Positions 4,480 to 63,942 of a DNA stretch of 64,000 bases are shown here, one piece after another. Under the pieces are notes generated by a model. That model saw only the letters and a list, made by a program, of their open reading frames with translations, had not been told where the DNA came from and did no database searches. Position numbers and translations under genes: made by a program. This DNA comes from Bacillales bacterium (GTDB lineage Bacteria; Bacillota; Bacilli; Paenibacillales; CANHCR01), in the NCBI GenBank assembly GCA_947459205.1, contig CANHCR010000009.1, positions 798 to 64,797 on the forward strand, written 5' to 3'. Each line of letters begins with the position of its first letter. The first letter of the stretch is position 1.

Positions 4480-4521
4480 AAGTTGTGAACAAACATTCGA
4501 AAGTGAAAAGGATGGCGGTAG

Positions 4522-8789: not shown

Positions 8790-8831
8790 TTTTTTGTTGT
8801 ATAATATCGATTGATGAGGAGGGAACACAAA

Positions 8832-9272
8832 ATGCTTAGTAAAATTGAAACGAATTCATTTGTGGGCGAGTTTGCGTTTTCGCTTGTCAACGAGCTCACC
8901 ACGCTGCATCCGATTCGGCCGAAGACGACCAAAACGAAATATAGTATCCAGCCGGTTGGTCTTGCTACATTCGGAGACAAAACAAAAAAAGTCGGCTATT
9001 TTTTGCCCGAACATGGCAGGTTGAGGATGGACATGGATTTTCCGTGCGGACGTTTTTCGCCAATTGAATTTTGCGCGCAATTCAACATTCCGTATCGCGG
9101 GGTATGCATGCCGCGAACAAAAACCGATTTTTCGAAGAGCGGCATCTATTACCGTTGTGACAGCACAAAATTCCACACATTCGTCTTTGTTTTCTACGAA
9201 GCAGATTTGCGCGGTGAAACGGGGAGCAGGATTCGAGAAATGCTTAGCACGATTTTGCGCGAAAGCGTATAG
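8832..9272 (+). CDS. hypothetical protein
   Basis: ATG 8832 lies 9 nt after AGGAGGG (8817-8823), within track ORF 8811..9272. No motif recognised. Confidence 0.55.
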   Translation: MLSKIETNSFVGEFAFSLVNELTTLHPIRPKTTKTKYSIQPVGLATFGDKTKKVGYFLPEHGRLRMDMDFPCGRFSPIEFCAQFNIPYRGVCMPRTKTDFSKSGIYYRCDSTKFHTFVFVFYEADLRGETGSRIREMLSTILRESV

Positions 9273-9292
9273 TGTAATCAGGTCATTGAGAA

Positions 9293-9330
9293 GTCCGATA
9301 TGCCATTTTGATGGTGTGTCGGATTTTTTG
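9293..9330 (+). terminator. putative rho-independent terminator
   Basis: Imperfect stem tccgatatgccat / atggtgtgtcgga (with G-U pairs) followed by tttttt. Confidence 0.55.
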
Positions 9331-9465
9331 TGCGTAACAGATTTTTGCCGGTGTGGGTACATTCGGAGGGCGGGCACGTGTATTTGGTGTTTCATCAGTG
9401 AAACTAAAAAACATAAGGTATATTATGTTTGGTCGTTAATATTAGAAAGTGAGGAGTGTTGCATT

Positions 9466-9879
9466 TTGACAGAGAGCGGATTGGATGACTGGGTTATCGA
9501 GTATGTTTTCCATAGTGATGAGCAGTTGCAGGTCATGTATGGCAAGTTTCGCAAAATCATAGACAATGAGGTGGATATCGATCAGGCTGATGAGTCTGAG
9601 TTCGTCAGCGATGATGAGATTGACCAGCACATCGCGCAATTGGTCGAAGCCGGCGCCAGCATCAAGTTGGACATCGGCTATGAGCAGATTGAGGCACTGT
9701 TGGAAAATCGAATCCAGATGGGTGAACATTTTGAAAATGATTCCCTGGAAGTCGGTGCATTCTTCAGCAAACTCGATGCGATGGTTGCTGCAGGGGCGAT
9801 TCGACCAGAGATTCACAATCTCTTCAATCGCAAGCAAGCGTTGACAAACAAGTATTTGACCATTTGGAATTTATATTAA
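9466..9879 (+). CDS. hypothetical acidic protein
   Basis: TTG 9466 lies 9 nt after GAGGAG (9451-9456). The long N-terminal extension of track ORF 9064..9879 crosses the terminator and overlaps the upstream gene. Product is Asp/Glu-rich with no recognised motif. Confidence 0.55.
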   Translation: MTESGLDDWVIEYVFHSDEQLQVMYGKFRKIIDNEVDIDQADESEFVSDDEIDQHIAQLVEAGASIKLDIGYEQIEALLENRIQMGEHFENDSLEVGAFFSKLDAMVAAGAIRPEIHNLFNRKQALTNKYLTIWNLY

Positions 9880-9892
9880 TGGAGAGGGAGTT

Positions 9893-10459
9893 GTGATTCG
9901 TCGTATGAATGTAACACAAATTCAGCAAGCGGATGTATTTTCGGTGAAAATGGAGTTGGCGGAGGCGCTCGAGTTGTTGACGTATTGCGCACAGCAAATA
10001 CCGACGCCGTGCCGGGCGAAGGTGACTGATGTGTTGGTCGATTTGCAGCATGTGACGCAACAGGCAGTCGAGTTTCGCTTTGAGCAACAGCAGGAGTCGG
10101 ACCTTTGGGCGGATTGGCTGGAGCAGAGCCATGTGCGCCATGTGCTACGAACGGGTTCCGATATCGAGGAACTCGAGGTGACGCGCGACGGACTTTCGGT
10201 ATATGTCCCGCTCAATGAGTTGGCGGTGATGGTCAGTCGCTTGTTGCGCGACGTGTACTTCGATGCGCAGATTTTGGATGTGCGCGAAGAGATGGTGCAC
10301 GGCGTCAGCGCTGGCGTGGAGTTGGACTTGGGCGTGACGTACCGCGGCGTGTTTGACCGAGCATTGTGGGAGCAAACGGCGGTATTTATCAGATTGGCAG
10401 TAGACGGTGCACGCTACGAGGAACGAATCGTAGAGGCGCCGACGGTGCAAGTAGTGTAA
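9893..10459 (+). CDS. hypothetical protein
   Basis: 188-aa ORF with a GTG start after GGAGAGGGAG. GC-rich codon usage matches its neighbours. Confidence 0.6.
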   Translation: MIRRMNVTQIQQADVFSVKMELAEALELLTYCAQQIPTPCRAKVTDVLVDLQHVTQQAVEFRFEQQQESDLWADWLEQSHVRHVLRTGSDIEELEVTRDGLSVYVPLNELAVMVSRLLRDVYFDAQILDVREEMVHGVSAGVELDLGVTYRGVFDRALWEQTAVFIRLAVDGARYEERIVEAPTVQVV

Positions 10460-10470
10460 TAAAGTTAAGG

Positions 10471-10518
10471 TGGCGCGATTTGGCTGTTTCATTTAGCCGA
10501 ACCGCGCCGTTTTTTTGT
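10471..10518 (+). terminator. rho-independent terminator
   Basis: ggcgcg (10472-10477) pairs with cgcgcc (10504-10509), with an inner stem (ttggct/agccga), followed by ttttttt. Confidence 0.6.
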
Positions 10519-10529
10519 TTCAGTACATA

Positions 10530-10781
10530 TTACTGCATCCAGGAACGAATTTCGTCTTCGCTTTCACCAGTTACTGTTGCGATCGTGTTGATGTCCGCAA
10601 GACCTAAACGTAAAATTTGAATTGAGAGTTTTTTTCTTCCTAGTTGGATTCCTTTTTGGTAGCCCTCTTGCATACCAGCAAGGCGTGCTTCTTCAAGTTG
10701 CTTTTGCCAAGCATTTTGCTCATTTTGAATCATAGCGGCATCCTCGCATTGTGGATTAGGATTTGACATTACTGTACCCAA
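10530..10781 (-). other. stand-alone copy of the Rpn C-terminal tail (83 aa): gene fragment or small partner protein
   Basis: AAMIQNEQNAWQKQLEEARLAGMQEGYQKGIQLGRKK..LGLADINTIATVTGESEDEIRSWMQ parallels the last about 85 aa of the upstream Rpn protein (AAMIENVQNAWQKKLEEIRLAGISEGEQKG..LGITDIPTISKLTGITEDEIRSWVQ). Overlaps its stop by 13 nt. Confidence 0.5.
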
Positions 10782-11842
10782 GATCGTATCTCATCCTCGG
10801 TAATACCTGTCAGTTTTGAAATGGTAGGGATATCCGTTATGCCTAAACTTAATAATTGTTTTGCGATTTCCTTTTTGCCTAGTTCAACTCCTTGTTGCAA
10901 TCCTTGTTGCAATCCTTGTTGCAATCCTTGTTCAACCCCTTTTTGTTCCCCTTCGCTGATACCAGCAAGACGGATTTCTTCGAGTTTTTTTTGCCAAGCA
11001 TTTTGCACGTTTTCAATCATAGCGGCTTCCTCTCCTCGTTCGGTTTGTTCGAATATGTCGTTGATTTCGTCACGGTGCGCACCGATGCGAGCGCCGAGCA
11101 TGACGCTGAGCCAAATCATAAATTGCCTGTACTGTTCGTCGCTGAACGTTTGCATTTGCTTCGCGATGAACCGCAAACGCCGAATGGTTTCCTCGGGATC
11201 GGTATCGATCGTTTGTTCGAGGTAGAAGGCGCTGCTGATGGTGTCGGATGCACGCGTCAGGATTCTTTCGCTGAGACGATGGACGTCGACCAAGACGTAC
11301 TCGATGGTTGCGGTTAGCGGTTTGGGACTGCTGACGCGAAACAAATCGAGGATGACGGTTTGCGGGTTGTGCCACTTCGGTTTACCGTTGTAGAGAATGA
11401 TGGGCACGATCATCGGCAGCGTGCAGACGCTTGCACTCGATTCGTCTTCAGACAGTTCGCGGATCGAACGGCGCCACTGTTCCATCGAACTTTCAAAGAT
11501 TCGCAGGCCCATTCGTGCATCGACTGTGGACTGCAACTCGAGCAGAATAAAGTAGAACGTTTGCTGTGCTCGATTACGGACGCGGTAGATGAGATCGCCG
11601 GTCGTTTTCGACAAATCCTTTTTGATAAACTCTGGGTTGACGGACAAGATCTCCAAATCGTCAATCTCGTCAATCTCGTCGATCTCGTCAATGAGCGGAT
11701 AGGGTACGAAACGGCGCATGAACTCGAGAAAAGTGCGCTTATCCGATAGTAGATGCTTGTAGCCGCTGTCGTGAATATGATAGGTAGTGAGGTTCGATAC
11801 GTACGGTGATGTCTCTTCGGATACTGCTGCAAGTTGCGGCAC
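10769..11842 (-). CDS. Rpn/YhgA-like recombination-promoting nuclease (PD-(D/E)XK, transposase_31-like)
   Basis: The N-terminus (HDSGYKHLLSDKRTFLEFMRRFVP), the IILYNG core and the helical tail are typical of this family. GTG start follows GAAGGAG. Confidence 0.85.
   Translation of the reverse strand: MPQLAAVSEETSPYVSNLTTYHIHDSGYKHLLSDKRTFLEFMRRFVPYPLIDEIDEIDEIDDLEILSVNPEFIKKDLSKTTGDLIYRVRNRAQQTFYFILLELQSTVDARMGLRIFESSMEQWRRSIRELSEDESSASVCTLPMIVPIILYNGKPKWHNPQTVILDLFRVSSPKPLTATIEYVLVDVHRLSERILTRASDTISSAFYLEQTIDTDPEETIRRLRFIAKQMQTFSDEQYRQFMIWLSVMLGARIGAHRDEINDIFEQTERGEEAAMIENVQNAWQKKLEEIRLAGISEGEQKGVEQGLQQGLQQGLQQGVELGKKEIAKQLLSLGITDIPTISKLTGITEDEIRSWVQ
10889..10936. repeat. 12-nt tandem repeat (tccttgttgcaa, about 4 copies) inside the rpn-like gene
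   Basis: Read directly. Encodes (QQGL)x3-4 on the minus strand. Confidence 0.85.
11658..11693. repeat. 9-nt tandem repeat (tcgtcaatc, 4 copies) inside the rpn-like gene
   Basis: Read directly. Encodes IDEIDEIDEIDD on the minus strand. Confidence 0.85.
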
Positions 11843-11900
11843 GGTGCGGACTCCTTCGCTCTATTTTCATTATACATCGCAAACCAAACTTCGATAACAA

Positions 11901-11912
11901 GAACATTTGTTC
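11901..11912. promoter_or_regulatory. candidate LexA (Cheo/SOS) box
   Basis: aGAACATTTGTTCt is a perfect GAAC-N4-GTTC core, 59 nt upstream of the rpn-like GTG start, with a TATAAT on the minus strand between box and start. Confidence 0.4.
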
Positions 11913-11973
11913 TTATATTACCAATAAATTTTATGATATGCAAATGTATATCTGAAATGGGCGGATTTAGCAT

Positions 11974-12372
11974 TTATCGGTTGGGAAGGTGATCTCCGCG
12001 CACGATGAACGTATGGCCGTCGGGGCTAATAAACAGTTCGTCTTTCTCCAAATCGAAGTAATCAGGTGAGATGTACAATTGATGCAACGCACTAAGGATG
12101 TCGTTATTGTACACGCTCCACAACGCCTCAAATTCGTTCGTTAGATGTTGAAGTTGGTGGTGCCGGATGTTGATTTCGGCGATCCGTGCGCGCATGTGTT
12201 CCGTTTTATCGACCGTAAGCCTGCCGATGTACTTTCCGTTCGCTCTGACCTTTTCGTCTCTGAGCGCCTTTTGTGCGTTCTCGATTTCTTCGAACGTACA
12301 CTTGGTAAATAGGTCGACAACGTTTTTATTTTTTTGACTCTGCGATTGCTTGTTCTTAGGCAAAAGATACAC
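11974..12372 (-). CDS. hypothetical protein
   Basis: 132-aa track ORF. A TTG at 12363 with GGAGG 7 nt upstream is the more likely start. No motif recognised. Confidence 0.55.
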   Translation of the reverse strand: MYLLPKNKQSQSQKNKNVVDLFTKCTFEEIENAQKALRDEKVRANGKYIGRLTVDKTEHMRARIAEINIRHHQLQHLTNEFEALWSVYNNDILSALHQLYISPDYFDLEKDELFISPDGHTFIVRGDHLPNR

Positions 12373-12394
12373 CTCCGGTTCGTTGGTCGAGCGA

Positions 12395-12731
12395 CTAGTT
12401 TTCTCTGACCAGTCGAATGCTCAAAATCTGATAGTCGGTACTGAGTTCAGCTGTCACACGCGACATGTTCATTCGACCGTCACTGCCAATGGGGATGTAG
12501 TATTGAAGGGTGAACATGTCACCGCTTTCATAGTGCATTACACGAACTTCGATCAGTCTGTCCATCTAAATCGCTACTTTGATTGTTGGTTGGGGCGACG
12601 TGCGATCGCCGCTCAAAGGGACTATACACCTGTTGAAATTTAAACTCTACGCGCTCAATCGACCGCTCGTAGGATGTCGGTTGATACCAGGATGACGGAC
12701 CGATCAAGCCGATCCGCGCCATTTGTTCCAT
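12395..12731 (-). pseudogene. possible frameshifted small gene, or two overlapping small ORFs
   Basis: Minus-strand ORF MEQMARIGLIGPSSWYQ..SSDL (part of track ORF 12528..12767) runs into a second frame, MDRLIEVRVMHYESGDMFTLQYYIPIGSDGR..LVREN (12395..12565, 56 aa). The two overlap near 12540-12565. Confidence 0.25.
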
Positions 12732-13309
12732 TTTTTCAACTTGCTGATTAAGGTAGCGCCGTGCCAATATTCGATTTTGAGTGACTCAGCTTCCGCTTTG
12801 GCAGGCGGCGTGAGGTCGGAGGTGGTGACGAGCAATGCGAGCACGCAACCGTGGTTCCGCTTGGCGCCGACCAATTCGCGAACGGTCATGACGCTTACTT
12901 TGTTGTTGTCGTTGTAACATTTGGCTTGGACGGCTGTTTTCTCGCCGCGTTTGTCGATGATGACGAGGTCGACCCCGCCGTCGTTGCCGCCGACGCCAAC
13001 TTCCTGCACTTGATAGCCGTGATCACGGAAATACAGAGCGAGCAAGCGCTCGAAATCGGTGCCGCTGATTTTGGACAACGAACTCGCGAGAATGACATCG
13101 TCGGGTTTGGCGGTTTTGCTGGTATCGCGAGTCGATTGACCGGTGCGACTGCTAGCGCTTGCTGATTGTGCGGATGAGCGTCGCGGTTTGCGGCGCTTTT
13201 TCTTTTTGAGCGATTGGTCGGCGATGTCTAGTAAAATTTTGAACACCGCAACTCCGGCTAGCATGAGGATAAATGTTGTCATGGGCATCGTTTCCTTTTT
13301 TTGTTTCAT
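12704..13309 (-). CDS. membrane-anchored Mrr-like (Mrr_cat) restriction endonuclease domain protein
   Basis: N-terminal TM helix, basic/Ser-rich linker, then FERLLALYFRDHGYQV..GGNDGGVDLVIID..AVQAKCY (the D..D/E-x-K core of the Mrr catalytic domain). Confidence 0.8.
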   Translation of the reverse strand: MKQKKETMPMTTFILMLAGVAVFKILLDIADQSLKKKKRRKPRRSSAQSASASSRTGQSTRDTSKTAKPDDVILASSLSKISGTDFERLLALYFRDHGYQVQEVGVGGNDGGVDLVIIDKRGEKTAVQAKCYNDNNKVSVMTVRELVGAKRNHGCVLALLVTTSDLTPPAKAEAESLKIEYWHGATLISKLKKWNKWRGSA

Positions 13310-13360
13310 AATATCATAAATAAAGAAGGAATTTTCAATTTTTTGTATAATATCTAATCC

Positions 13361-13843
13361 GTGGTCTATTATCTAATGTATGATAGAGAGGGTGGTGTTA
13401 TTCATCGATATGTTCAAAATACAATAGTATCTTTGGTAGCTTTGATGATTGGTGTGCTCATTTATTTTTTTGCTCGCAGCGAACAATTACTAGTTTACGA
13501 TTGGATTCCCGGCTTTTCTTTGATCGCAAACAGTATGAAAGGAGCTGCATCAGACTCAGGGTCATTGCAATTCTTGACGAACCAAACATGGTTCGTGTAT
13601 TCGCTCCCGGATGGTTTGTGGCTGTTCTCGTTTACATTAATAGCAATGACGATTTGGCAGAATGTTCGAAAACGAATCAAAGGAATTGTTGCGATCAGCG
13701 TTTTATTGTTTGCCCTCATACACGAAATCGGACAACTAGCAGATTGGTTTCGAGGGACCTTTGATCTCATCGATGTCATTACATACTTTATTTTTTGGTG
13801 TATCGCAACGATTTACATTAAAATTCAGGGGGATGTAAAATGA
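13361..13843 (+). CDS. hypothetical integral membrane protein
   Basis: 160 aa with about 4-5 hydrophobic helices. AT-rich. Start uncertain (GTG in track). Confidence 0.6.
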   Translation: MVYYLMYDREGGVIHRYVQNTIVSLVALMIGVLIYFFARSEQLLVYDWIPGFSLIANSMKGAASDSGSLQFLTNQTWFVYSLPDGLWLFSFTLIAMTIWQNVRKRIKGIVAISVLLFALIHEIGQLADWFRGTFDLIDVITYFIFWCIATIYIKIQGDVK

Positions 13844-14385
13844 AAAACAGTGTGAAAGTTTTGCTATCAATGTTTGCGGTTTTTGTGTTTTTAATGCTTT
13901 TGGCAGGAAGCAGCGAGTCTGATACATCTAGTTCAACAGACACCAATCAAGGAACTGAGAAAAAGTCTGCGTTCTCTATCGGAGATGACGTAACTGTGGG
14001 AGATTTGGCCTACCGAGTCGAAAGTTCTAAGGAAGCGTCTTCGATTCAAAGTGGTAATGAATTCATTGACGATCTCACGACGACAGGCAAATTTGTAATT
14101 ATTGACGTTACCGTGCAAAACAACGATAAAGAATCACGTTATGTGGACGGAGCAATGTTTAAACTTTTAGATAAAGACGGTGCGGAGTATAGTTCGACAA
14201 GTGAAGCGGACATGTTGATTAATGATGGAACTGGCTTTTTTCTGGAGAAAATCAATCCGAAAATGTCACGTAGAGGAAAGGTTGCATTCGAAGTTCCGGC
14301 CGATGCGACGAACTTGAAACTGCAAGTGTCGAGTGGACTTGGTTGGAGCGGAGGCGACTATGAGGAGATTTCGCTAGGCAACTAA
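13840..14385 (+). CDS. secreted DUF4352-like protein
   Basis: Signal peptide, Ser/Thr-rich linker, then a beta-rich domain (GKFVIIDVTVQNNDKES..GKVAFEVPADA) typical of DUF4352. 4-nt overlap with the upstream gene. Confidence 0.75.
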   Translation: MKNSVKVLLSMFAVFVFLMLLAGSSESDTSSSTDTNQGTEKKSAFSIGDDVTVGDLAYRVESSKEASSIQSGNEFIDDLTTTGKFVIIDVTVQNNDKESRYVDGAMFKLLDKDGAEYSSTSEADMLINDGTGFFLEKINPKMSRRGKVAFEVPADATNLKLQVSSGLGWSGGDYEEISLGN

Positions 14386-32441: not shown

Positions 32442-32595
32442 ATAGAATAATATCCTTGTCGGCATACTCGAGTCTTATTGGATCGGAGTGTGATTCAACA
32501 GTGGCACTCATCCTATGTCCTGAATGTGGAAAATCGATATCAGATTGACCTTCCCCCTCAAAACTGATCCACTTCAAAAGTTAGTTTATGAACGC

Positions 32596-32785
32596 GGTGA
32601 AACGGTTGTTTCTGATCTCATTCAGAGCGTCAAAATTACTATGGATGATATTTTTCATTTTCGTAGTAGCTGATTTGTAGCGTTAAGTGATTTTACCATG
32701 AGTATAACCATGTGGTGTGATGGTTGAGAATTCACCACATGGTTTTTCTTTTTTGGCAGGAAAATCATCACCTATGTGGAAATTG
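32596..32785 (+). promoter_or_regulatory. leader-like module, copy 1 (diverged homologue of 51389-51579)
   Basis: Aligns by eye with 51389-51579 over its full length: gaaacggttgtttctgat, tcaaaattac, ttttcgtagtagctgatt, catgagtataaccatgtgg, catggtttttc-ttttttggcaggaaaa. Contains a 9-codon mini-ORF (32698..32727, MSITMWCDG) and a terminator. Confidence 0.7.
32706..32754 (+). terminator. intrinsic terminator inside leader module copy 1
   Basis: Perfect 12-bp stem aaccatgtggtg (32706-32717) / caccacatggtt (32733-32744) followed by tttctttttt. Confidence 0.75.
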
Positions 32786-32804
32786 TTTAAGAGGTCCCAA
32801 TCGT

Positions 32805-33000
32805 TGTCAATCACCCGTTTTCCATTGCGAATCCGAATCGATATTTTCGTTGATGAACCGAATTCAGTTGCTCTTGGTTGTACGTTTTCAGTAAATGGGG
32901 ATTAAGTTTTAATTTCGCTTGCTATCTGCGACACTTCAAGGCGATGAGATGTTTTACAATTTGCTGATACGTTAATATGAGATTTCGTAAAACTCGATGA
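32805..33000 (+). repeat. about 195-bp direct repeat, copy A (near-identical to 61294-61490)
   Basis: Base-by-base comparison shows one 1-nt indel and four substitutions. It ends at the RBS GAAGGAG of a 17-codon mini-ORF (33014..33067). Confidence 0.9.
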
Positions 33001-33130
33001 AGGAGTGATTCTCATGAAAGACTTACCGAAGGTTTTGCAAAAGCAATTTTTATTTAAAAATGAAACATGAGCCGCATTAGATAGAGGAAAAAGTTATGTA
33101 AGTCAATCACCCGAAAAAGTATCAGAAGCG

Positions 33131-34255
33131 ATGCAAAACAGCGAATGTAACCTAGCGCAAATTTTGCCGATGATTTCTGCAAATTCTCCAGAACATCACA
33201 AAGCCATCATCCAGCAATGTCCATCCGCAATTCGTGAAATGGCTAACCCTGATGAGGCGCTCAAATCGATGGCTTTGCAGATTGCACCTTGGATGCGACA
33301 TGTTTTACATCTTCGTAATGATGACGAAGCCCTGCAAAAACTGATTGAGGCGACCGTGAATCATGGGTTTTTTATGGAACGAGAGGCCGAACAGCCATCT
33401 CTGCATTTAGGCGGGGTCCCGTTTCCAAAGAAAATCTATTATCCGCTTGATCGCTTTCCGAACGACCATTTTAAATTAGATATTCATGACGCGAAGCGTC
33501 AATCTCAACCGCTGTCCAGTTCGAGAATTAACGAGCATGATGACCGCGTTGATGTTTCGCCTGATTTTGAAAGTTGGGCATGGTATCAAACGTTTCATGC
33601 ATGGTCGGATGAGGAATACGGCATCTATATCACCACGTCTGGTTTAGCAAGATTTGCGGACCGTGCATTTTATCAAGCGCTTTTACGACATGAGCACCAA
33701 TCGAATCCGAACCCAAATAAGACAGAATTGAAAAAGATATGGTCTCAGTCTTTGCAAATGGCTTTTCAGACCGTGCTATTTCATGAATACTATCATTTCT
33801 TTAAGGATATTGCAGCTGCCACTTTAGAACAACTTTGGTTCGCATTGAACCCTGGGAACACACGCCAGTTTTTTCATGAGTACAGAAAGAACATCTATTT
33901 TCCTGGGCTACATAACCGACTTCGTGAAGAGCCATTGGAAGAGGCGTTGGCGAATGCTTTTTCTTGGCGAGCGTTCTGCGAAAGATACTCAGATTCATCT
34001 TTGTATGATCAACAAGCGATCGAACTTGTAAAACAAGATTTGGCGAAATATATGACTAATCAACCAAGCGGGTACTGTCATTATGATCAATTTATTGAAG
34101 ACGCGGAGTATGTGAAAGGGAATCAACAACTGATCTCTTTGCTGTTGACTCAGCAGGCGAGTGTGATTCCAGGCAGCGAGCGTCTCTTGCAACCGACTTT
34201 CGCTGACATGTACAAGTATAACGTGCCCGTTTATGTGATTGATGATCGAGACTAG
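33131..34255 (+). CDS. hypothetical protein with HExxH motif (putative zinc metallopeptidase-like)
   Basis: 374-aa ORF with VLFHEYYHFF (HExxH) and a downstream acidic EEPLEEALANAF segment. Weak RBS. No family recognised. Confidence 0.6.
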   Translation: MQNSECNLAQILPMISANSPEHHKAIIQQCPSAIREMANPDEALKSMALQIAPWMRHVLHLRNDDEALQKLIEATVNHGFFMEREAEQPSLHLGGVPFPKKIYYPLDRFPNDHFKLDIHDAKRQSQPLSSSRINEHDDRVDVSPDFESWAWYQTFHAWSDEEYGIYITTSGLARFADRAFYQALLRHEHQSNPNPNKTELKKIWSQSLQMAFQTVLFHEYYHFFKDIAAATLEQLWFALNPGNTRQFFHEYRKNIYFPGLHNRLREEPLEEALANAFSWRAFCERYSDSSLYDQQAIELVKQDLAKYMTNQPSGYCHYDQFIEDAEYVKGNQQLISLLLTQQASVIPGSERLLQPTFADMYKYNVPVYVIDDRD

Positions 34256-34499: not shown

Positions 34500-34528
34500 T
34501 TGACGCTAGTAGTTTGAAGAAATATATT
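34500..34528 (+). promoter_or_regulatory. putative sigma-A promoter for the dynamin genes
   Basis: TTGACG (34500-34505), 17 nt, TATATT (34523-34528), within the 382-nt AT-rich gap upstream of 34638. Confidence 0.45.
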
Positions 34529-50999: not shown

Positions 51000-51388
51000 A
51001 CACAAATGTATTTTATACAATCTCTGCGGAATGGGATTCTGCAAGCATTCAAAATTGTTAGGAAATCAAATTCATGGGAACATGAGATCATATCATTCGA
51101 TTGGAGAAGTGTATGTCAGGACATCAAAGATAGCAGCTTTATCGTCGGGATGTTGTCGAGCATGTCTTGAGAAGGGTGAAGAACCCTACAGCATCTGTTG
51201 GCTCGCTCAACTGAGTTGAGTAATCACTCGTTTTTTTGCCAGTGGGCATTGAGGGCATTTTGTATCAAATTCTCTAAACTGCTGATGTCCGACATCAAGT
51301 GATTTTAGGGGAATTCACGAGTGCATGAAATCAAGCATCCAATCAAGACGGTATGTTATTAATGGCACCAATTAAGGTGTATTAAATT

Positions 51389-51579
51389 GGAGAAACGGTT
51401 GTTTCTGATTATATACAGCGTGTCAAAATTACAATTGATGATATTATCCATTTTCGCAGTAGCTGATTCATAGTAAAAAATGGCATTATCATGAGTATAA
51501 CCATGTGGAAAGATTTTTGAAAATCTGCCGCATGGTTTTTCTTTTTTTGGCAGGAAAACCATCAAATATGTAGAATTTA
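51389..51579 (+). promoter_or_regulatory. leader-like module, copy 2, directly upstream of the 51619 operon
   Basis: Homologous to 32596-32785. Contains mini-ORF 51491..51520 (MSITMWKDF) overlapping the 5' arm of a terminator. It ends about 40 nt before the RBS GGAGGG of the 51619 gene. Confidence 0.7.
51499..51548 (+). terminator. intrinsic terminator/attenuator inside leader module copy 2
   Basis: Stem aaccatgtgg (51499-51508) / ccgcatggtt (51528-51537, one G-U), inner stem agatttt/aaaatct, then tttttcttttttt. The stem is conserved with copy 1 while the loops differ. Confidence 0.7.
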
Positions 51580-51618
51580 TAAAATAGAATTCTAAATAAT
51601 CGGAGGGTTTGATTTCAT

Positions 51619-52653
51619 ATGTTAAATAAACTACTAGAAAACAAAGAATTAATCAATTATTTAGAAAGTGCAGCATGTCGATTGAAAGTAATCGAATTCG
51701 ACGAAAGTTTTAAGTCAATTTCAGAGGCGGAATTAAATCATTTATTGCAGTTTTTACACCGTTTTTGTCACGAAAGACAGTGGGTGTATGCGATTCGAGA
51801 TGCATCAAAGACGCCGGAGAATGCGATTTCACACTATGTCGATCGTTTAATCGAGCAGTCGAAATCTAGGGATGCAGAAGACAAAATTTTTAAACGATTG
51901 GTTGTTATTACGAATATACCTGACGAGCCTTCAGAAGCACTTGTATCGGCTTTAGATCGTCTATTGGAATCTAGTGATGATATGTATTTGATCGTTTCTT
52001 TCGGCAGATCGATCTATAAGCAAGTCTATAAGATGAGTAAATTCAGGATGTTCCTAGATAAATTGCTTTTGATTTCGAATGCAACAAAAAATACGGAAAT
52101 CAGGAGTGTTGCGTCATCAAACATATTGATAACAAATGTACCGACAACAAACGTGGCATTTCCGCGATATCGTCCGTCAGATGATTTGAAAGCATTTCTG
52201 TACGCAAATTTCCCGCTGATTCATAATGCGAATTTTGACTTGTCTGAAATCAATCATGAGTCAACGATAGTGAAAGCAAAATTAACGGATCACCTTAATC
52301 ATCATCACACAGCGTTCGGTGGCAGCATTGCTCTTAGTTTGTTATTGTCGGCGATGTGCCATTTGGTCAAGATTGTCGATACGTTCCCTGAAGAGTTGTC
52401 ATTTGTTATCGGCAAACAGGAAGTCACATATTACGAAAAAATAAACGAAGACTTTGTTGTTAGAAGTCTTGAGGTTTCCGACCAGGAAAAACGCGATTAT
52501 TTTGCACGCGTAATGGAGCGCGGAAGAGGTGCCATTGTGATTAAATCGCAAATTCGCGACGAAGCCACTGATAAACTGCTGGCAGAGTTTATTGGGAAGT
52601 TCGTATGTATCAAGTGTATGGATGTTGAACCTTCCGACTATGCAATAAGCTAA
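51619..52653 (+). CDS. hypothetical protein, C-terminal hotdog-fold (PaaI/4HBT thioesterase-like) region
   Basis: 344 aa, RBS GGAGGG. C-terminal KAKLTDHLNHHHTAFGGSIALSLLLSAMCH..GAIVIKSQIRDEATDKLLAEFIGKFVCI resembles the N..G.(H/F)GG..a.L.D hotdog pattern. The N-terminal half is unknown. Confidence 0.65.
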   Translation: MLNKLLENKELINYLESAACRLKVIEFDESFKSISEAELNHLLQFLHRFCHERQWVYAIRDASKTPENAISHYVDRLIEQSKSRDAEDKIFKRLVVITNIPDEPSEALVSALDRLLESSDDMYLIVSFGRSIYKQVYKMSKFRMFLDKLLLISNATKNTEIRSVASSNILITNVPTTNVAFPRYRPSDDLKAFLYANFPLIHNANFDLSEINHESTIVKAKLTDHLNHHHTAFGGSIALSLLLSAMCHLVKIVDTFPEELSFVIGKQEVTYYEKINEDFVVRSLEVSDQEKRDYFARVMERGRGAIVIKSQIRDEATDKLLAEFIGKFVCIKCMDVEPSDYAIS

Positions 52654-52676
52654 ATTGAATTGAGGAGTGGTAGAAG

Positions 52677-53294
52677 TTGCGCATATGTGATGTACAAGCG
52701 TTAGTTTTGAATGGGACGTTTATTGTTTGTTGGGATGAGACATTGCTGCGAAACAGTCCGCCACGAGGCAGGCTTACTATTGATGCGAATGCCCTTGTGT
52801 TGCGAGCATACATTGACAATGAGTTTGGTTTAAGTTTTAAGTTTGCGTGTTATGCGATGCTCCAAGATGAACAGGTGACATTGTTTGCCGACGACAGCGG
52901 ACTGGGTTCGTTTACCATTCGTATAGACGAATCGACCGACTATTCTTTTATTTGGCTGCCACATGGTGTTTATAATGAGGATACTTTGAATCTCGATCGG
53001 ATGGTTCGCGAATGTTATCAAGTGAATGATTTTGTTCAATATAGTAGAACGATGGACGTTTTGCATCCGTTGCGAGACAGGATTCAGCCGGATGTGATTC
53101 GTGTTCTACTATCTGCTAAAGATGGTGAGATGGAAGGGGTATGGTGTCGAATTCATGACTACATCAATGAACGAATGGTTGTTAAATTGTTGCATGACAC
53201 GAAGAGAGATTTTGGTCTACGGACAAATGCCCTGTTAAATGTGGATATCGTACAACATGAGGGTCAAGCATATGTTGTTTGGGAACAGGAGTGA
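52677..53294 (+). CDS. hypothetical protein (decayed paralogous fragments lie at 32805-33000 and 61294-61490)
   Basis: 205 aa, TTG start after GAGGAGTGG. The segment RLTIDANALVLRAYIDNEFGLSFKFACY parallels RIRID..NSVALGLYVFSKWGLSFNFACY encoded by the repeat copies. Confidence 0.65.
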   Translation: MRICDVQALVLNGTFIVCWDETLLRNSPPRGRLTIDANALVLRAYIDNEFGLSFKFACYAMLQDEQVTLFADDSGLGSFTIRIDESTDYSFIWLPHGVYNEDTLNLDRMVRECYQVNDFVQYSRTMDVLHPLRDRIQPDVIRVLLSAKDGEMEGVWCRIHDYINERMVVKLLHDTKRDFGLRTNALLNVDIVQHEGQAYVVWEQE

Positions 53295-53398
53295 GCAATA
53301 CAATTTCGGATTTCTGCAGTAGCTGCGATGCAGTAGAGTAATAGGCTAATTATTTTATTTTGGTCAAGAGGAACATGTGACGCGAGAGGAGTGTTCTG

Positions 53399-54673
53399 AT
53401 GAAGTTACAGGAGCAGTATCAAAAGTGGTTGAATGAATTTACTGAGGCGCACGGCAGACCGAGCCCGTATGAATCGGTTGCGACATTTGAATCATTTGAG
53501 GCGCGCTTGAAATTTGCTGATTTGTTGCGCATGTTTGACGAAAGTGGTGAGCAGGATTTTGCGAAAATCGAACAAATTTACTTGTCAATTATTCACGATG
53601 CGGTTGCAAGACAATGTGCAGGTGTAACTTTTACACATGCAGAGATGCATTTGTTGGCGCGCTTGTATATCAAATATGGGCAGTTGTACTGGGAGTGCCG
53701 CAAAGATGAGTCGTTTTTGCTCGATATGTTGGATCGCGCGACTACGTTCATCAAACTCGATAAACGCTTGAATGGGCTTGAAGCGACGGTCGAATATTTT
53801 CGTTTGAAGTTGTTGGCGGATCAGGGACAGCAATTGAGAGCGCTACAGGAAGCAAAGTCGCATCTGACGCTCGTCGGGAAAAAGAGGAAGTCGTTGTGGA
53901 ATCGGGAAAAATACATGTTTCATTTGTTTCTATTTGAATTGTATAGCGACAATCAATGTTATGAGGATGCGGAAGAACATTTGCAGGAAGCGTGCCTTGC
54001 TCTGAACTTGTTGAAAAAAGCGAATGTTGATGACTTTATGCCAGTAGAGCTCATGGGCGTCGTGTCACGCTACATTTTTGAAGTAGAAGATCAAGGGATG
54101 ATGTTTGTACCTGGGGAGGATGGTCCGGAGCGCGACCGCAAAGCAAACTATGCAGCGAACGTGAAGATTCAGGTGGAGAATGCGGCTTACTATGGGGAAG
54201 CGCATTTTGATGAGAAGTACCAGCGTGACGAGCAGATTTTGCTATTGAAAGGCTTTTTGCCGAAGAAGGTTGAAGGCAATGAACTAATTGAAGAAGAGTG
54301 TGCGACGATTGTCGCGGGTGCGCTGAAGGCAGGCGCATTGATTGAGACGGAGTTCGGACTCGAAGTCGTGAATCCGATTGCCGGAAATGTGATGGATATC
54401 GCGGCGTTGATTAGCGGACAAGCAGGCCTAAAGCGACGAGAATATTACAAAATGTGGCGCGATAAGGTGGATGGAGCGAGTCTGTACGAGGACCATTATT
54501 ATGTACGAGGTGAAGGTGAGGATGACCACCTCGATGATGGCAATGATTATGAAGGCATGTCGGCTAAGCAGAAAGAATTATTGGAATATAAATGGAGTAA
54601 ACAGTTTAATCGATCGCGGCGCTTAAACCGAAATATTGCGAAGCGATTGCGCGATTTGTTGGAGTGGAATTGA
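53399..54673 (+). CDS. hypothetical alpha-helical protein
   Basis: 424 aa, RBS GAGAGGAG. Predicted helical/TPR-like N-terminal half. No catalytic motif recognised. Confidence 0.65.
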   Translation: MKLQEQYQKWLNEFTEAHGRPSPYESVATFESFEARLKFADLLRMFDESGEQDFAKIEQIYLSIIHDAVARQCAGVTFTHAEMHLLARLYIKYGQLYWECRKDESFLLDMLDRATTFIKLDKRLNGLEATVEYFRLKLLADQGQQLRALQEAKSHLTLVGKKRKSLWNREKYMFHLFLFELYSDNQCYEDAEEHLQEACLALNLLKKANVDDFMPVELMGVVSRYIFEVEDQGMMFVPGEDGPERDRKANYAANVKIQVENAAYYGEAHFDEKYQRDEQILLLKGFLPKKVEGNELIEEECATIVAGALKAGALIETEFGLEVVNPIAGNVMDIAALISGQAGLKRREYYKMWRDKVDGASLYEDHYYVRGEGEDDHLDDGNDYEGMSAKQKELLEYKWSKQFNRSRRLNRNIAKRLRDLLEWN

Positions 54674-54817
54674 GGTTTCTTTAGAATCAACACGATAAAG
54701 CTAGTGCCTCGTGCCGGTGCGCTTCTACTCATCAAGCGAATGTTTTTCTTTTTTCTAAAATAAAGGAATTAACGCTGTTTTTATTGAATTTATATAACGA
54801 CTAATGGGGGTGAGCAT

Positions 54818-55672
54818 TTGTTGATTGATCAGCTACGCCAAAGTTTTCAAACCAATGGAGCAACTCACCCGCAAACGATGTGCTTCGTTACTCAGTACAT
54901 CTCGCGCATCATGAATGTCGCGCCGAAACAAAAAGACTTTCGTAACCATAATAAATTTCACGACGCGCAATTGATTGCAGATGACCGTCAATTATGTCTG
55001 ATGGTGATTGAAGCCTATATTTGCGATCCGAAATACATTCGAATTTATGAAAATCTCGACCAATATGACGACGAACAGTGGATTCACATGAAACCAAGTG
55101 AGCAGGATCCACACGGAACATTTTATGTGGAGGAGTTACGTGGATGGATTTGGGACTTTGGTCCAGATGATCCGCATGATACAGAAGACATTTTATCCGA
55201 TAATGAAGATTTGGAGGAGTGGATGGACTTTGACACCCTCGTCCACCAACGCATTTCTTACGTTTTGCTGAAACTTACGTTTCATGCGTTTATGGGAAGC
55301 GCAGAACAACCTGCGTTTTTCGAAATGTTGTGGCGAATTATTGCGCGCGCGTTTCAAAAACAAACCGTCTTTGGAGAAGGTACGTGGTCTCTCGAGGGCA
55401 TTATGGAGGAACTTGTTCATTACAAAGCGTTCACATTTATGAGCAATGTGTTATTGCATTTTCGCACAAATAAACTTTTCCCCTACAACTCTTGGATGCG
55501 TTTTGCTGGCATGTTGATACGTGGACAATTTGAAGCATTATCCAAGATGGGCTATCACTCCAAAATTAGTGCGAATGTATTGATCAGAAATGAACTCGAG
55601 CGTGTGGCAAACGAAGAAAACTGGCCGGCGTTGAAGAAGAAATATTTGCTAGCACGAGTTGGTCTGCTGTAG
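54818..55672 (+). CDS. hypothetical protein
   Basis: 284 aa, TTG start after GGGGGTGAG. No motif recognised. Confidence 0.6.
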   Translation: MLIDQLRQSFQTNGATHPQTMCFVTQYISRIMNVAPKQKDFRNHNKFHDAQLIADDRQLCLMVIEAYICDPKYIRIYENLDQYDDEQWIHMKPSEQDPHGTFYVEELRGWIWDFGPDDPHDTEDILSDNEDLEEWMDFDTLVHQRISYVLLKLTFHAFMGSAEQPAFFEMLWRIIARAFQKQTVFGEGTWSLEGIMEELVHYKAFTFMSNVLLHFRTNKLFPYNSWMRFAGMLIRGQFEALSKMGYHSKISANVLIRNELERVANEENWPALKKKYLLARVGLL

Positions 55673-55701
55673 CTGCAATCACGAAAAGGAGTCACACGTC
55701 A

Positions 55702-58137: not shown

Positions 58138-58744
58138 TTTGAATCGTCAAACGAAAAAGAAATATCGCCTGCGCAATTGGGATGACGTACAAGAGTTTGA
58201 AAAATATGCGCGACTCATCACCGAACTGATGATTTCCTGTTTGCCTCGCGAACAGGTGGAACGTTTGATGCTGGCGCGTCTAAATGAGCGAGATTTTTCG
58301 ACATTGCAATGTTGGTTCAATCACGATAAAGATTTTACGGCGACCGTCGCGGCGTTGCAAACGCAAGATTTCTCGCGCTTTGTGGAACTTACTTTGTTTA
58401 ACGTATTCAGTGAACTAGAGCGGGCACTTGTCGAGTATTTAGATTCGCTCGATTTCACGCCGGAAGTAGAGGTTCAGAACGCGGAAATTGTGGTGCGCAA
58501 TCCGCTTCCGTTTTTGCAATATACGACGTGGCCGATGGAAGATTACTCGTATCTAGTCGTAAAGACAAGCATCGACAAACAGAAGTTTTGGGCAGAGAAA
58601 TGGAGCCGTTCGGAGCAAAAGATTTTACAAAAGGTATATGCGTACAAGAAAAACCGCAGCGGGCGCTATGTGATTGCAAAAGACGAGTTCGCCAAGGCGT
58701 TGATTGAAATGAACGAGTTGTTAGGCAACCCGACTGATCGTTAA
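58127..58744 (+). CDS. hypothetical protein
   Basis: 205 aa. GTG 58127 or TTG 58139 start, overlapping or abutting the stop of the 811-aa gene (translational coupling). Confidence 0.6.
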   Translation: MGCDLNRQTKKKYRLRNWDDVQEFEKYARLITELMISCLPREQVERLMLARLNERDFSTLQCWFNHDKDFTATVAALQTQDFSRFVELTLFNVFSELERALVEYLDSLDFTPEVEVQNAEIVVRNPLPFLQYTTWPMEDYSYLVVKTSIDKQKFWAEKWSRSEQKILQKVYAYKKNRSGRYVIAKDEFAKALIEMNELLGNPTDR

Positions 58745-58756
58745 GGAGGTACCACC

Positions 58757-59827: not shown

Positions 59828-59830
59828 GCG

Positions 59831-61293: not shown

Positions 61294-61490
61294 TGTCAAT
61301 CACCCGTTTTCCATTGCGAATCCGAATCGATATTTTCGTTGATGAACCGAATTCAGTTGCTCTTGGGTTATACGTTTTCAGTAAATGGGGATTAAGTTTT
61401 AATTTCGCTTGCTATCTGCGACACTTCAAGGCGATGAGATGTTTTACAATTTGCTGATACGTTAATATGAGATTTCGTCAAACTTGACGA
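61294..61490 (+). repeat. about 195-bp direct repeat, copy B (near-identical to 32805-33000)
   Basis: See copy A. Carries an open 54-codon frame (MSITRFPLRIRID..GLSFNFACY..) that is frameshifted in copy A. It ends at the start region of the 61484 gene. Confidence 0.9.
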
Positions 61491-63133
61491 TGGGGGTGGA
61501 GGTAATAAAAAACATTTCTATGCAAGACTTCAGCGTTGATGATGTTCCGAATCTAATTCGCTCCGCTGTCGATGAGATTAATTCTACACATAACAGTTTT
61601 GGGCCATACAACCGAGAATCTCTTGTCAAAGTGAAAGGTTGGCTTGAAACCGCATGGCAACTGATGGTTGACAAGGAGTTCTGTGAGACTCATCTGCAAA
61701 TCGCTTGGCCGTTAACGGTTGTATATATTAGGCTGAATTTGCCTCATAGCATTGATGAACTCATACAATACTTGAAAAAACATGATCGTGAAGGTTTGTC
61801 CGAATCTCTGTTAAGCTTGATGAAAACCTCGCAAGCTCTATCAAATTACACTTCAATCTATAAAACATATCATAACGGCTCAGTGGTGTATGAGTTGTCA
61901 AATCCAAAAGCTGTGGCACAACTTATTGCATTGTGTAGTGAACATCGGTATTGGGTGTTAGATATGAGAATTAAGGAACAACCTGTTTTACATGGTCACT
62001 CAATCGTCAAAGGTTTAACTGAGGCAGATGGAGCGATTTTGCTTGAATTAATGACGAATCGACGAGGAGCATCTTCGCAACTCATCATAGAGAGGTTGAA
62101 CGAAGTGCTTGATTCGGTTGTTGAAGCGGAACAGTTTGATCTCCGGATGTCACGACTACGCACACAATTAAGAGATCAATTTTCCGAACTAATCCCTCGA
62201 GATACCTTGTTTATCAATGAGTCTGAACGATATGAATGGAACGTGCCTGGTACGTTCTATGTAGTTGAAACAATTGATTATAAATCTATCAGTACCTCGG
62301 ACTTTTTGAATATCGGGCTAACACCGTATCATGTTTGCGACTTGTCAGATATGACGGAAATGAGTGATTTTGAAGCGTTTGAAAAATTTTGTTTGGCGGT
62401 CGCAGTGGAATACGGTTTATTTGTTGAAAAAGAACCTTACTCGCTTGATCAAGTATTACAACATCTAACGGAGTCGGCAGATGATAAAAAAATTCTTTCA
62501 CTATCTGGGGAGTTAATTAAAGGATTAGTAGTCTGTCAAATCCATCTGAAACATTCTGGTGAGATTGATAAAGTATGGGGTGAAATTGAAGCGATTTTGA
62601 AAAAAAACAAATTGTACAATTTCTATGAAAGGTATAATTATCTTTATCGTGCGTTAGATGAAAGTAGGTCACCGCATCTTTTGTATATAAATGGTGAGCA
62701 ATTTCGTGATGTGACCCTAGATCGTGTATATCGCACAATTGAGGATGCTCATGATCGTGAGGATATGTTAGTCTTGGACTATCGTGTTGCCATTCGACCC
62801 CGAATCCATGCTGCGGGAATAACTTGGGAAGTAACGCCGCTTCAAGGGAAATTATTGTTCGCGCTTATGACAACAACTCGCCCTGTGACAAAGGAGCAAA
62901 TTATCGCTTACGTAGGTGAATCCTTTTCATTCGATCGAATGCTCCAAAATTTAAGACAAAGATTTGAAGACAAGTATCCTAACCATTACAACACTAAGTT
63001 TCTTCGCAGTCCAGATAAAAAAGGATATCGCATTGGACTGGATTGTGAATTTGCTGTCATTGATAGAAAAACATACGAACCTTACACTGGGATCATTAAA
63101 CCATCACCTATAATTCAATTCACTAACATCTAG
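61484..63133 (+). CDS. putative transcriptional regulator with two OmpR/PhoB-type winged-helix (Trans_reg_C-like) domains and no receiver domain
   Basis: Two matching segments: LTEADGAILLELMTNRRGASSQLIIERL..FDLRMSRLRTQLRDQF and VTPLQGKLLFALMTTTRPVTKEQIIAYV..DRMLQNLRQRFEDKY. Start ambiguous (TTG 61484, ATG 61490 or ATG 61520). Confidence 0.65.
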   Translation: MTMGVEVIKNISMQDFSVDDVPNLIRSAVDEINSTHNSFGPYNRESLVKVKGWLETAWQLMVDKEFCETHLQIAWPLTVVYIRLNLPHSIDELIQYLKKHDREGLSESLLSLMKTSQALSNYTSIYKTYHNGSVVYELSNPKAVAQLIALCSEHRYWVLDMRIKEQPVLHGHSIVKGLTEADGAILLELMTNRRGASSQLIIERLNEVLDSVVEAEQFDLRMSRLRTQLRDQFSELIPRDTLFINESERYEWNVPGTFYVVETIDYKSISTSDFLNIGLTPYHVCDLSDMTEMSDFEAFEKFCLAVAVEYGLFVEKEPYSLDQVLQHLTESADDKKILSLSGELIKGLVVCQIHLKHSGEIDKVWGEIEAILKKNKLYNFYERYNYLYRALDESRSPHLLYINGEQFRDVTLDRVYRTIEDAHDREDMLVLDYRVAIRPRIHAAGITWEVTPLQGKLLFALMTTTRPVTKEQIIAYVGESFSFDRMLQNLRQRFEDKYPNHYNTKFLRSPDKKGYRIGLDCEFAVIDRKTYEPYTGIIKPSPIIQFTNI

Positions 63134-63198: not shown

Positions 63199-63942
63199 AT
63201 GTCGAAAAACAACGATCAGATTAGAGAATTGCTAGCTTTTTATCAAAACAATGGTGACCGTCATGCACTGGAACAAATCATGATGGAACATATGAAACTG
63301 GTTTGTTTTATCGTGAACCAATTTTTGTCCGACAAAGAGACATATGCGAGAACATGGTTTGATGATTTATGCTCGGAAGGAAATCTTGGTTTGATGCATG
63401 CCGCAAATGAATATGATTTGTCTCGTAACACTAAATTCTCTCATTATGCTTATATGAAAATTTTTCGCAATGTGAGTCGAGCGTATCATGAGTGTATAAA
63501 ACAAATGAAAGTCCCGTATTCACATGTGACTCGTCTGAAGCGATACATTGAAGCGGATAGCATGTTTAAGAACGCACTTAATTTGGAAGTATCACATCGT
63601 GAGTTTATAAAATCAGAGATGGGGATTTCGGAATGCCAATACTGGAATCTCAAGCATGCCGCAGCTGCTAGTGACGTTGATTTTTTAGATGACGATTCCT
63701 TTGAAACATCAGCCATAACTCCAACAATTCGTTTAGAAGACGAGGTGATTTATGGAGAGTTTGAAACTTTTTTAAACCATATCTTGTCTCAATTAGATGT
63801 GGAAGTGGGGCAACTGGTCGTACAAAGAATGAACATCGATTTTTCGCGTAAATCGCAACAAAAAGTATTAAGTAGAAAGGAAAAACAAGTCCTTCAACCG
63901 GTGCAGTCACTTATCGGCGAGTGGTTTAACGAATCAAATTAA
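63199..63942 (+). CDS. sigma-70 family RNA polymerase sigma factor (divergent; region 4 not obvious)
   Basis: Region 2 DLCSEGNLGLMHAANEYDLSRNTKFSHYAYMKIFRNVSRA, then MKVPYSHVTRLKRY, then a region-3-like HTH. ATG 63199 follows AAGGGAG (track start 63133). Confidence 0.8.
   Translation: MSKNNDQIRELLAFYQNNGDRHALEQIMMEHMKLVCFIVNQFLSDKETYARTWFDDLCSEGNLGLMHAANEYDLSRNTKFSHYAYMKIFRNVSRAYHECIKQMKVPYSHVTRLKRYIEADSMFKNALNLEVSHREFIKSEMGISECQYWNLKHAAAASDVDFLDDDSFETSAITPTIRLEDEVIYGEFETFLNHILSQLDVEVGQLVVQRMNIDFSRKSQQKVLSRKEKQVLQPVQSLIGEWFNESN

Follow-up and report, generated by a model that had tools for sequence, protein, structure and literature searches.

Two near-identical copies of a dead gene fragment, 28.5 kb apart, in a defence island from the Bacilli

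Within a 64,000-nt stretch of metagenomic DNA from an uncultured member of the Bacilli (contig CANHCR010000009.1; the whole of this stretch is referred to below as the window) there are two copies of a sequence of about 200 bp, which stand in the same orientation with a start-to-start distance of 28,489 nt and which are almost identical to one another. This repeat is dead coding sequence, present twice, of the family to which an intact 205-aa gene lying between the two copies belongs; it is not itself a gene, and it is without detectable regulatory, RNA or coding signature. The reading favoured here, with moderate confidence, is that it is the relic of a gene fragment that was copied or converted recently, probably neutral, of the kind that ordinary rearrangement leaves over.

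Copy 1 extends from 32805 to 33007 and copy 2 from 61294 to 61498, and the match between them within the contig is highly significant (blastn, E = 1e-73). A sequence-only reading of the same DNA had described near-identical direct repeats ending at 33000 and 61490; both the repeats and the list of differences between them proved correct on re-alignment, the homology being 7–8 nt longer than had been given. Each copy can be divided into a long core and a short tail (coordinates in Table 1). The cores differ at just two points, GG (32876-77) in copy 1 against GGG (61365-67) in copy 2, and G32880 against A61370, while the tails show six differences over 19–20 nt, comprising substitutions at 32989 (A/C), 32995 (C/T) and 32998 (T/C), then one indel and two further substitutions. 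The differences are thus strongly clustered in the tail (6/20, as against 2/184 in the core; Fisher p = 1e-5). At the other end the edge is abrupt, with 73 nt of perfect identity running right up to the first base, and a comparison of the sequences on both flanks of the copies found no residual similarity. An apparent continuation past the tail (TTCT(C)ATG[AC]AAGACTT, present after both copies) was rejected as homology, being reached by 76 of 300 shuffles. Also rejected, in this case as an operator or junction signature, was the 12-mer GTCAATCACCCG, which opens both repeats and has a third exact copy at 33102-33113, 18 nt before the ATG at 33131; of the 12-mers in the repeat, five occur again in the window, where 1.4 would be expected, which is near chance. 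It had further been claimed that the remainder of the island is much more diverged and that the identity is therefore recent, and this holds: the other DNA repeat nearby is 77–78% identical and the dynamin paralogues of the island are 21–25% identical as proteins, so that, by comparison with the rest of the island, a recent date for the near-identity of the two copies is supported.

The ancestry of the repeat is seen in its resemblance to the 205-aa open reading frame (ORF). At the nucleotide level, positions 32854-32951 (61343-61441 in copy 2) resemble 52781-52877, inside that ORF, at 65–66% over 100 nt (blastn, E = 3e-5). In translation, the fragment aligns with residues about 28–59 of the 205-aa protein at 43% over 35 aa (...GLSF[NK]FACY...), with tblastn and blastp E-values of 3e-5 and 9.5e-5 against island-only databases, and in an all-against-all comparison of the island proteins this was the only significant match that did not involve dynamins. 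The Smith-Waterman score of the fragment against the 205-aa protein is 68, compared with 24 ± 4 (maximum 48) for 2000 shuffles. Neither the 205-aa ORF nor the 549-aa ORF that follows copy 2 matches anything other than itself among 5.8 billion proteins, and an exhaustive HMMER search found 76 remote homologues that make up the 205-aa family, mostly 205–215 aa in length and without a Pfam model, which share the N-terminal core Y-G-Y-I-D-x-e-A-G-[LI]-[ST]-F-E-x-L-C. When the fragment is scored against the 75 other members of this family its mean score is 29.95, a value reached by none of 200 shuffles (23.93 ± 0.93), and its alignments land on the conserved Y-[IV]-D...A-G-[LI]-[ST]-F...C core. As regards the family itself, its conserved motifs are YGYID..AG[LI][ST]FE.LC and LLNEP..DFG, fusion to an SseB-like domain occurs in part of the membership, and the neighbourhood of one remote member (P0009) is unrelated to the present locus.

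Of the roughly 205 codons of the gene, about 35 remain. The matching frame of copy 2 runs on without interruption for 60 codons (61275-61457), and the family frame is kept across the variable site at 61365-61370; in copy 1 it is lost at 32876-32880, through a 1-nt frameshift at 32877/32878, and it is broken also in copy 2 as represented in a second assembly (see below). No Shine-Dalgarno sequence precedes the only ATG of the fragment in either of the copies examined. Similarity to a family that is specific to one frame, combined with truncation, a frameshift and the lack of a start signal, is what characterises a gene remnant. The repeat is not anonymous regulatory DNA; the sequence-only reading had rightly picked it out and had overlooked this coding origin.

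The surroundings of copy 1 tell a related story, as just upstream of it lies D1-A, an older repeat whose intact counterpart, D1-B, is situated at 51.4 kb (Table 1). In D1-B a terminator (hairpin 51499-51537 followed by a U tract; -20.9 kcal/mol, z = -2.95) precedes the promoter TTGGCA-18-TAGAAT at 51547-51576, which scores 11.5 with a position-weight matrix. D1-A has kept its terminator (hairpin 32706-32744 with a U tract to 32755; -24.4 kcal/mol, z = -4.1) and its promoter has decayed: TTGGCA at 32753-58 is followed after 18 nt by TGGAAA at 32777-82, in which both critical -10 positions are lost. At D1-B the order is cassette, 344-aa gene, 205-aa gene; at D1-A it is cassette, 11 nt, fragment. 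Since a decayed cassette and a decayed piece of the second gene are thus colinear with their intact counterparts, the spacer at 32.4–33.1 kb is best read, on its sequence, as what erosion has left of the head of an operon that was once duplicated, and chance juxtaposition of cassette and fragment is unlikely (a few per cent by rough estimate). It may also be mentioned that D1-A and D1-B contain a possible 25-codon remnant of the C-terminal end of a gene, ETVVSD[LY]IQ[SR]VKIT[MI]DDI[FI]HFRSS*, and that by eye D1-B also fits a sigma-H-like pattern, AGGAAAA-N11-GTAGAAT.

As the window occupies positions 768-64767 of an 89-kb metagenome contig assembled from short reads with MEGAHIT at k = 141, the possibility must be considered that the second copy was made by a collapsed or chimeric join, and this possibility gains something from the fact that two assemblies disagree inside copy 2. 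However, the longest exact runs common to both copies, of 73 and 108 nt, are each below k, so that an assembly at k = 141 resolves the two copies, and a second assembly in ENA (scaffold_69, 227 kb) holds both of them in the same contexts. Logan contigs of run SRR6754089, built with k = 31, stop 30 nt into copy 2 and resume, in both contexts, exactly 30 nt before the first difference of the tail; for three of the four flanks the contigs end precisely where prediction places the ends, and this pattern of breaks is the signature of a genuine repeat in two contexts. The core of copy 1 recurs without any change in scaffold_69 and in one Logan contig of ERR3761229. An artefact of assembly is accordingly scarcely credible, and high identity, unrelated flanks and recurrence across assemblies together mark the pair as a segmental duplication.

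Over the 40.9 kb for which scaffold_69 can be set against the window (23131-64000) the sole difference lies inside copy 2, at 61365-61370, where copy 2 of scaffold_69 (L010, about 9877-9881) bears the allele of copy 1 at both variable positions. This swap may be a conversion tract or may equally be an assembler smoothing out a bubble; either explains it as well as the other. All the public contigs that contain the locus are 100% identical and represent one clone: those from SRR6754089, ERR3761228 and ERR3761229, which are runs of different studies, are 100% identical in every kilobase compared. ERR3761228 and ERR3761229 are metagenomes from the Rimov reservoir (PMC10244341). Such identity across studies would suit one clone of wide distribution, or possibly a contaminant from a laboratory or reagent that the studies had in common. 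Relatives of the locus were not found in the protein collection, the GTDB genomes or the JGI metagenomes searched.

Any function of the repeat would most naturally be sought in the control of the genes downstream. The SbcD protein encoded in the window is at most 54% identical to those of Paenibacillus, Brevibacillus and Lysinibacillus, which places the host in the Bacilli, so that sigma-A promoters and strong Shine-Dalgarno sequences are the signals to expect, and both are seen elsewhere in the island. Promoter scans were calibrated on the best position-weight-matrix score per 260 nt of island sequence (mean 6.5, 90th percentile 9.0, maximum 11.6). The best sigma-A score in the repeat, 6.1, is at this background, with no sigma-70-type site on the plus strand of either copy; the scans cover promoters of the sigma-A type. 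No terminator was found within the repeat on the gene strand, and its predicted RNA fold is no more stable than those of shuffled sequences (z = +0.58 for the plus and +0.28 for the minus strand). Rfam yielded nothing in 32805-33007, whether at gathering score or at E <= 1, and no dyad motif common to the repeat and 13 other island upstream regions rose above shuffles. The dynamin genes that follow copy 1 have a promoter of their own (Table 1) and can therefore do without the repeat. The proposal of the sequence-only reading that the repeat is a shared promoter or 5' untranslated region (5'UTR), which would co-regulate the two loci, thus receives no support from anything computed.

There is no terminator-like fold between the gene for a vWA protein that precedes copy 2 and copy 2 itself, so that copy 2 may be transcribed by read-through from the promoter at 51.5 kb; more generally, transcripts that run through the repeat may include it as leader or spacer. 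Upstream of copy 2 the site most like a promoter is at 61078-61108, where a perfect -35 hexamer, TTGACA, overlaps the stop codon of the vWA gene and is followed after 19 nt by CATAAT, a spacer that is too long.

The statement that each copy ends at the translation-initiation region of the next ORF was upheld, with AAGGAG leading to the ATG at 33014 in one case and candidate starts at 61484 and 61490 in the other; the tail of copy 2 also runs into a GGAGG ahead of a further ATG, at 61520. The gene order just beyond copy 1 is peculiar. An 18-codon ORF is followed in frame, after one TGA, by a 374-aa ORF before whose ATG (33131) there is no Shine-Dalgarno sequence, and the arrangement over 33014-33130 is identical in all the assemblies. 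Possible explanations are a gene interrupted by a nonsense codon, a leader peptide and a start that has been wrongly set; an alternative genetic code in which the TGA at 33068 would be read through was rejected, as TGA terminates many of the island ORFs. The 374-aa protein belongs to a small family with HExxH (here FHEYFHF) and an invariant EEPLEEALANA, and from these motifs it looks like a metallopeptidase; its four remote homologues, which were found in unrelated contexts, are without its N-terminal 100 residues.

The 549-aa ORF beyond copy 2 (547 aa if begun at the ATG at 61490) had been called a regulator, a label for which nothing speaks in the databases: it has no domain in Pfam and no match in a PDB sequence search, no DNA-binding domain is detectable in it, a scan of GTDB genomes found no match to it, and its single-sequence AlphaFold model (pLDDT 39) is unusable. 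By eye, stretches of this ORF (61520-63133) do resemble winged-helix domains of the OmpR/PhoB type (...LTEADGAILLELMTNRRGASSQLIIERL... and ...VTPLQGKLLFALMTTTRPVTKEQIIAYV...KKGYRIGL), a likeness that was not confirmed by Pfam, the PDB sequence search or the model. The 374-aa and 549-aa proteins showed no relatedness when compared with one another.

Table 1 Coordinates in the window of the repeat, its relatives and the neighbouring features.
Feature	Position	Strand	Remarks
Copy 1 core	32805..32988	+	184 nt; 98.9% identical to 61294-61478
Copy 2 core	61294..61478	+	185 nt; counterpart of 32805-32988
Copy 1 diverged tail	32989..33007	+	carries Shine-Dalgarno AAGGAG (33000-33005) for ATG 33014
Copy 2 diverged tail	61479..61498	+	overlaps candidate starts TTG 61484 and ATG 61490 and the beginning of GGAGG (61497-61501)
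Variable site of core	32876..32880 / 61365-61370	+	GG..G in copy 1, GGG..A in copy 2
Degenerate coding fragment	32822..32925 (61311-61415 in copy 2)	+	104 nt, about 35 codons
205-aa ORF, intact relative of fragment	52677..53294	+	second gene after D1-B
D1-A, older repeat	32584..32793	+	ends 11 nt upstream of copy 1; 77-78% identical to 51377-51587
D1-B, intact counterpart	51377..51587	+	terminator and promoter heading operon 51619-61081
18-codon ORF	33014..33070	+	directly after copy 1; AAGGAG, 8-nt spacing
374-aa ORF	33131..34255	+	in frame with 18-codon ORF, one TGA (33068-33070) between
Sigma-A-type promoter TTGACG-17-TATATT	34500..34528	+	score 12.8; ahead of first dynamin gene (34572)
549-aa ORF (547 aa from ATG 61490)	61484..63133	+	directly after copy 2
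Sigma-70 region-2 protein	63199..63942	+	follows 549-aa ORF

We infer the mode of origin of the pair, as we do the neutrality of the repeat and its recombination, and three routes can be envisaged: after a 28.5-kb tandem duplication, an illegitimate deletion might have removed almost the whole of one copy; a single crossover might have integrated a circle that had the fragment in common; or an old duplication of 205 bp might have had its core homogenised by gene conversion. The sharp left edge and the lack of diverged flanking homology favour recent copying, while the diverged tail and the swap of alleles from one assembly to the other favour conversion. If conversion has been recurrent, the 184-bp core would have been kept identical by concerted evolution and the tail alone would show the true age of the duplication, an alternative that is possible, if clearly less probable than the relic just described. 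It would explain why the differences are so unevenly spread along the repeat, and the divergence of the tail, at about 30%, is in the range seen for the D1 pair (22%) and for the fragment against the 205-aa gene (35%); the only assembly difference over 40.9 kb, moreover, has just the form that a conversion tract would take. On the other hand, the perfect identity of 73 nt at the left edge, with no diverged homology beyond the edges, is not what an old duplication would be expected to leave, the assembly difference can equally be put down to a scaffolded assembly in which a bubble was popped or a gap filled, and a tail of 20 nt is too short for dating. The likeliest biological consequence of the pair would be a passive one, in that two direct repeats of 184 bp could recombine so as to delete or amplify the block that holds the dynamin, McrBC and MoxR-vWA genes. 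The sequence-only reading had named the repeat as a substrate for RecA, which stands in principle, as it would for any direct repeat of 184 bp; the sole hint of actual exchange is the allele swap, for which bubble smoothing would serve as well.

There are several points that weigh against the preferred reading of a recently copied or converted relic. The left edge at 32805 falls within 11–28 nt of the junction between D1-A and the fragment, a coincidence that is not predicted by a duplication with random breakpoints from the locus of copy 1, and that is not accounted for by any simple model. Six tail differences within 20 nt require an additional assumption, whether of selection on the ribosome-binding region, of mutation associated with the junction, or of a duplication that is old and whose core has undergone conversion. 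A hidden Markov model of the family of the 205-aa protein, used alone, misses the fragment among six-frame pieces (E = 9.3), and all the public instances come from one clone. Then there is position: the copies are oriented like the genes downstream and end about 10–25 nt from a start codon, and breakpoints so close to start codons would be somewhat unexpected if random. The terminator of D1-A lies 50 nt before copy 1, so that the 33014/33131 unit needs a promoter within 32756-33013, 80% of which is repeat, and non-canonical promoters (for instance those of the sigma factor encoded at 63199-63942) would escape the scans.

These last considerations are also what can be said for a shared cis-regulatory leader, that is, a non-canonical promoter, operator or 5'UTR through which the unit formed by 33014 and the 374-aa gene and the operon of the 549-aa and sigma genes would be co-controlled, with the sigma factor of the island or the 549-aa protein as possible agents. 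The operon after copy 2 does encode a sigma-70 region-2 protein, and the core has remained nearly identical though the tail has diverged. The points in favour are positional only, however, and set against them are the lack of a sigma-A promoter above background where other operons of the island, including that of the dynamins, have clear ones, the lack of any dyad in common with other upstream regions, of RNA structure and of an Rfam family, the origin of the sequence as a decayed gene fragment, the want of a DNA-binding domain in the supposed regulator, and the odd manner of initiation after copy 1, with its short ORF, TGA and long ORF devoid of a Shine-Dalgarno sequence. A leader of this kind is therefore regarded as unlikely. 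Bolder still, and more doubtful, is the idea of an exaptation in which the dead fragment would now serve both loci as leader or operator and be bound or read by the island sigma factor or the 549-aa protein, with recombination between the copies shedding or amplifying the three-system block of 28.5 kb; were this true, it would couple the unit before the LeoA/LeoBC-like dynamin genes to the operon for the sigma factor, M28 peptidase and PLD protein.

The topology of the pair, with direct repeats that bracket accessory defence genes (LeoA/LeoBC-like dynamins, McrBC, MoxR-vWA), is exactly what would be left by a single crossover of the Campbell type, or by site-specific integration yielding attL and attR, in which recombination took place between a copy already resident and another on a 28.5-kb circle; an insertion scar of this sort had also been suggested by the sequence-only reading. 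Positive evidence for it was not forthcoming, and the proposal is improbable. Pfam scans of the ORFs of the block (33131 to 61081) found no integrase, resolvase, transposase or other recombinase domain and no replication domain; the window contains no tRNA or tmRNA gene; and the GC content of the block (34–49%) is like that of the island on both sides, with no break at either copy. The ancestry of the repeat lies, besides, inside the block itself, in the 205-aa gene at 52.7 kb, and usual att cores are 3–10 times shorter than this repeat.

It could also be asked whether the repeat is a functioning element in its own right, namely a small protein gene of 54–60 aa or something akin to a miniature inverted-repeat transposable element (MITE). 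For the former there is the uninterrupted 60-codon ORF of copy 2 with its family-like sequence, and for the latter a size that is typical of MITEs, yet both ideas are very improbable indeed. Neither copy 1 nor copy 2 of scaffold_69 has an unbroken frame, and the putative gene would have to do without a Shine-Dalgarno sequence, although strong ones are the rule in this genome. Terminal inverted repeats and a target-site duplication are both lacking (the flanks, CAATCGT/...ATTCTC and ACAGCAA/...GAGGTA, have no duplication in common), and there are two copies only in 73 kb and none in the JGI metagenomes, IMG/VR, PLSDB or phage records: a degenerate 26-nt pattern of the repeat was absent from the JGI metagenomes and IMG/VR searched, and blastn of the repeat against plasmids (PLSDB) and phage records gave no match. 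Lastly, the template and variable repeats of a diversity-generating retroelement were considered and rejected, as a scan of the ORFs between 14.5 and 64 kb showed no reverse transcriptase domain, while both copies are intergenic and the differences between them include C/T, T/C and indels.

The setting of all this is a defence island that begins part of the way into the window. The first 8 kb, with the genes for SbcCD and a MatE transporter, have 51–57% GC and a strong GC skew; as far as composition goes, positions 1-14300 are backbone (51–57% GC, GC skew 0.19–0.29) and positions 14300-64000 are island (34–49% GC). In the transition zone there are genes on the minus strand for a YhgA-like transposase (10769-11842) and an Mrr-type nuclease (12704-13309), and a direct repeat of 115 nt (10638-10752 and 10925-11039; 77% identical, 287-nt spacing) is situated at the 3' end of the transposase gene or overlaps that end. 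Scaffold_69 starts at position 14306 of the window, just before the SNF2 helicase gene. From about 14 kb onwards the genes are of defence type and nearly all on the plus strand, strong Shine-Dalgarno sequences being the rule and TGA an ordinary stop. Their order is SNF2 helicase, RNase T-BRCT protein, an AAA_21/RloB pair and a type III restriction-modification system, then an EVE-HNH protein and a 1508-aa helicase with an MTES_1575 nuclease domain, then the three LeoA/LeoBC-like dynamins, McrBC and the operon that ends in MoxR and a DUF2201 vWA protein, and finally the 549-aa orphan, the sigma-70 region-2 protein, an M28 peptidase, a PLD protein and others.

Comparison with better-known systems helps to place the pair. 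The rrn operons, copies of insertion sequences and the tuf genes are dispersed repeats known as substrates for RecA-dependent deletion and amplification, and the present repeat resembles such low-copy dispersed direct repeats in having two near-identical copies of the same orientation, 28.5 kb apart, with unique flanks; it differs in being only about 200 bp long and a non-functional gene fragment rather than a gene or insertion sequence, and a rearranged junction has not been observed. With the gene remnants found in the spacers of fast-evolving accessory or defence islands it shares a frame-specific family similarity, the lack of a start signal, a broken frame and an adjoining promoter-terminator cassette that has decayed, whereas it is unlike them in comprising two almost identical copies, each right before the first start codon of an operon. 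Concerted evolution of the tufA/tufB type offers a parallel in its near-identical core, diverged edge and possible transfer of an allele between copies, although the sequence here is non-coding, with no obvious selective reason for homogeneity, and the evidence for conversion comes down to one site, which may be an artefact of an assembler. The attL/attR pairs of islands and prophages also consist of direct repeats flanking accessory genes, but at this locus there is no integrase or recombinase, tRNA target or compositional boundary, and the repeat is much longer than an att core usually is and derives from a family resident in the block. Finally, the present repeat recalls MITEs and the Correia, BOX and RUP elements, which are intergenic repeats that may carry promoters or act on mRNA, in being about 200 bp in size, intergenic and upstream of genes; in contrast to them, it has no inverted termini, target duplication, stable fold or promoter-like sequence, and there are only two copies.

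Taken for itself the finding matters little, for the pair is just another segmental duplication, and a small one, within a defence island that is rearranging and that belongs to an uncultured bacterium of the Bacilli. Its main use is as a caution: standing ahead of two operons does not by itself make a repeat regulatory. Should the regulatory reading hold after all, a pseudogene fragment would have been recruited as a shared control region for defence operons. The repeat pair offers, in addition, a cheap and concrete test of structural heterogeneity in a defence island. As for the island itself, its spacers appear to accumulate relics of earlier operon duplications, represented in this case by a gene fragment, a dead promoter and a terminator that has been retained.

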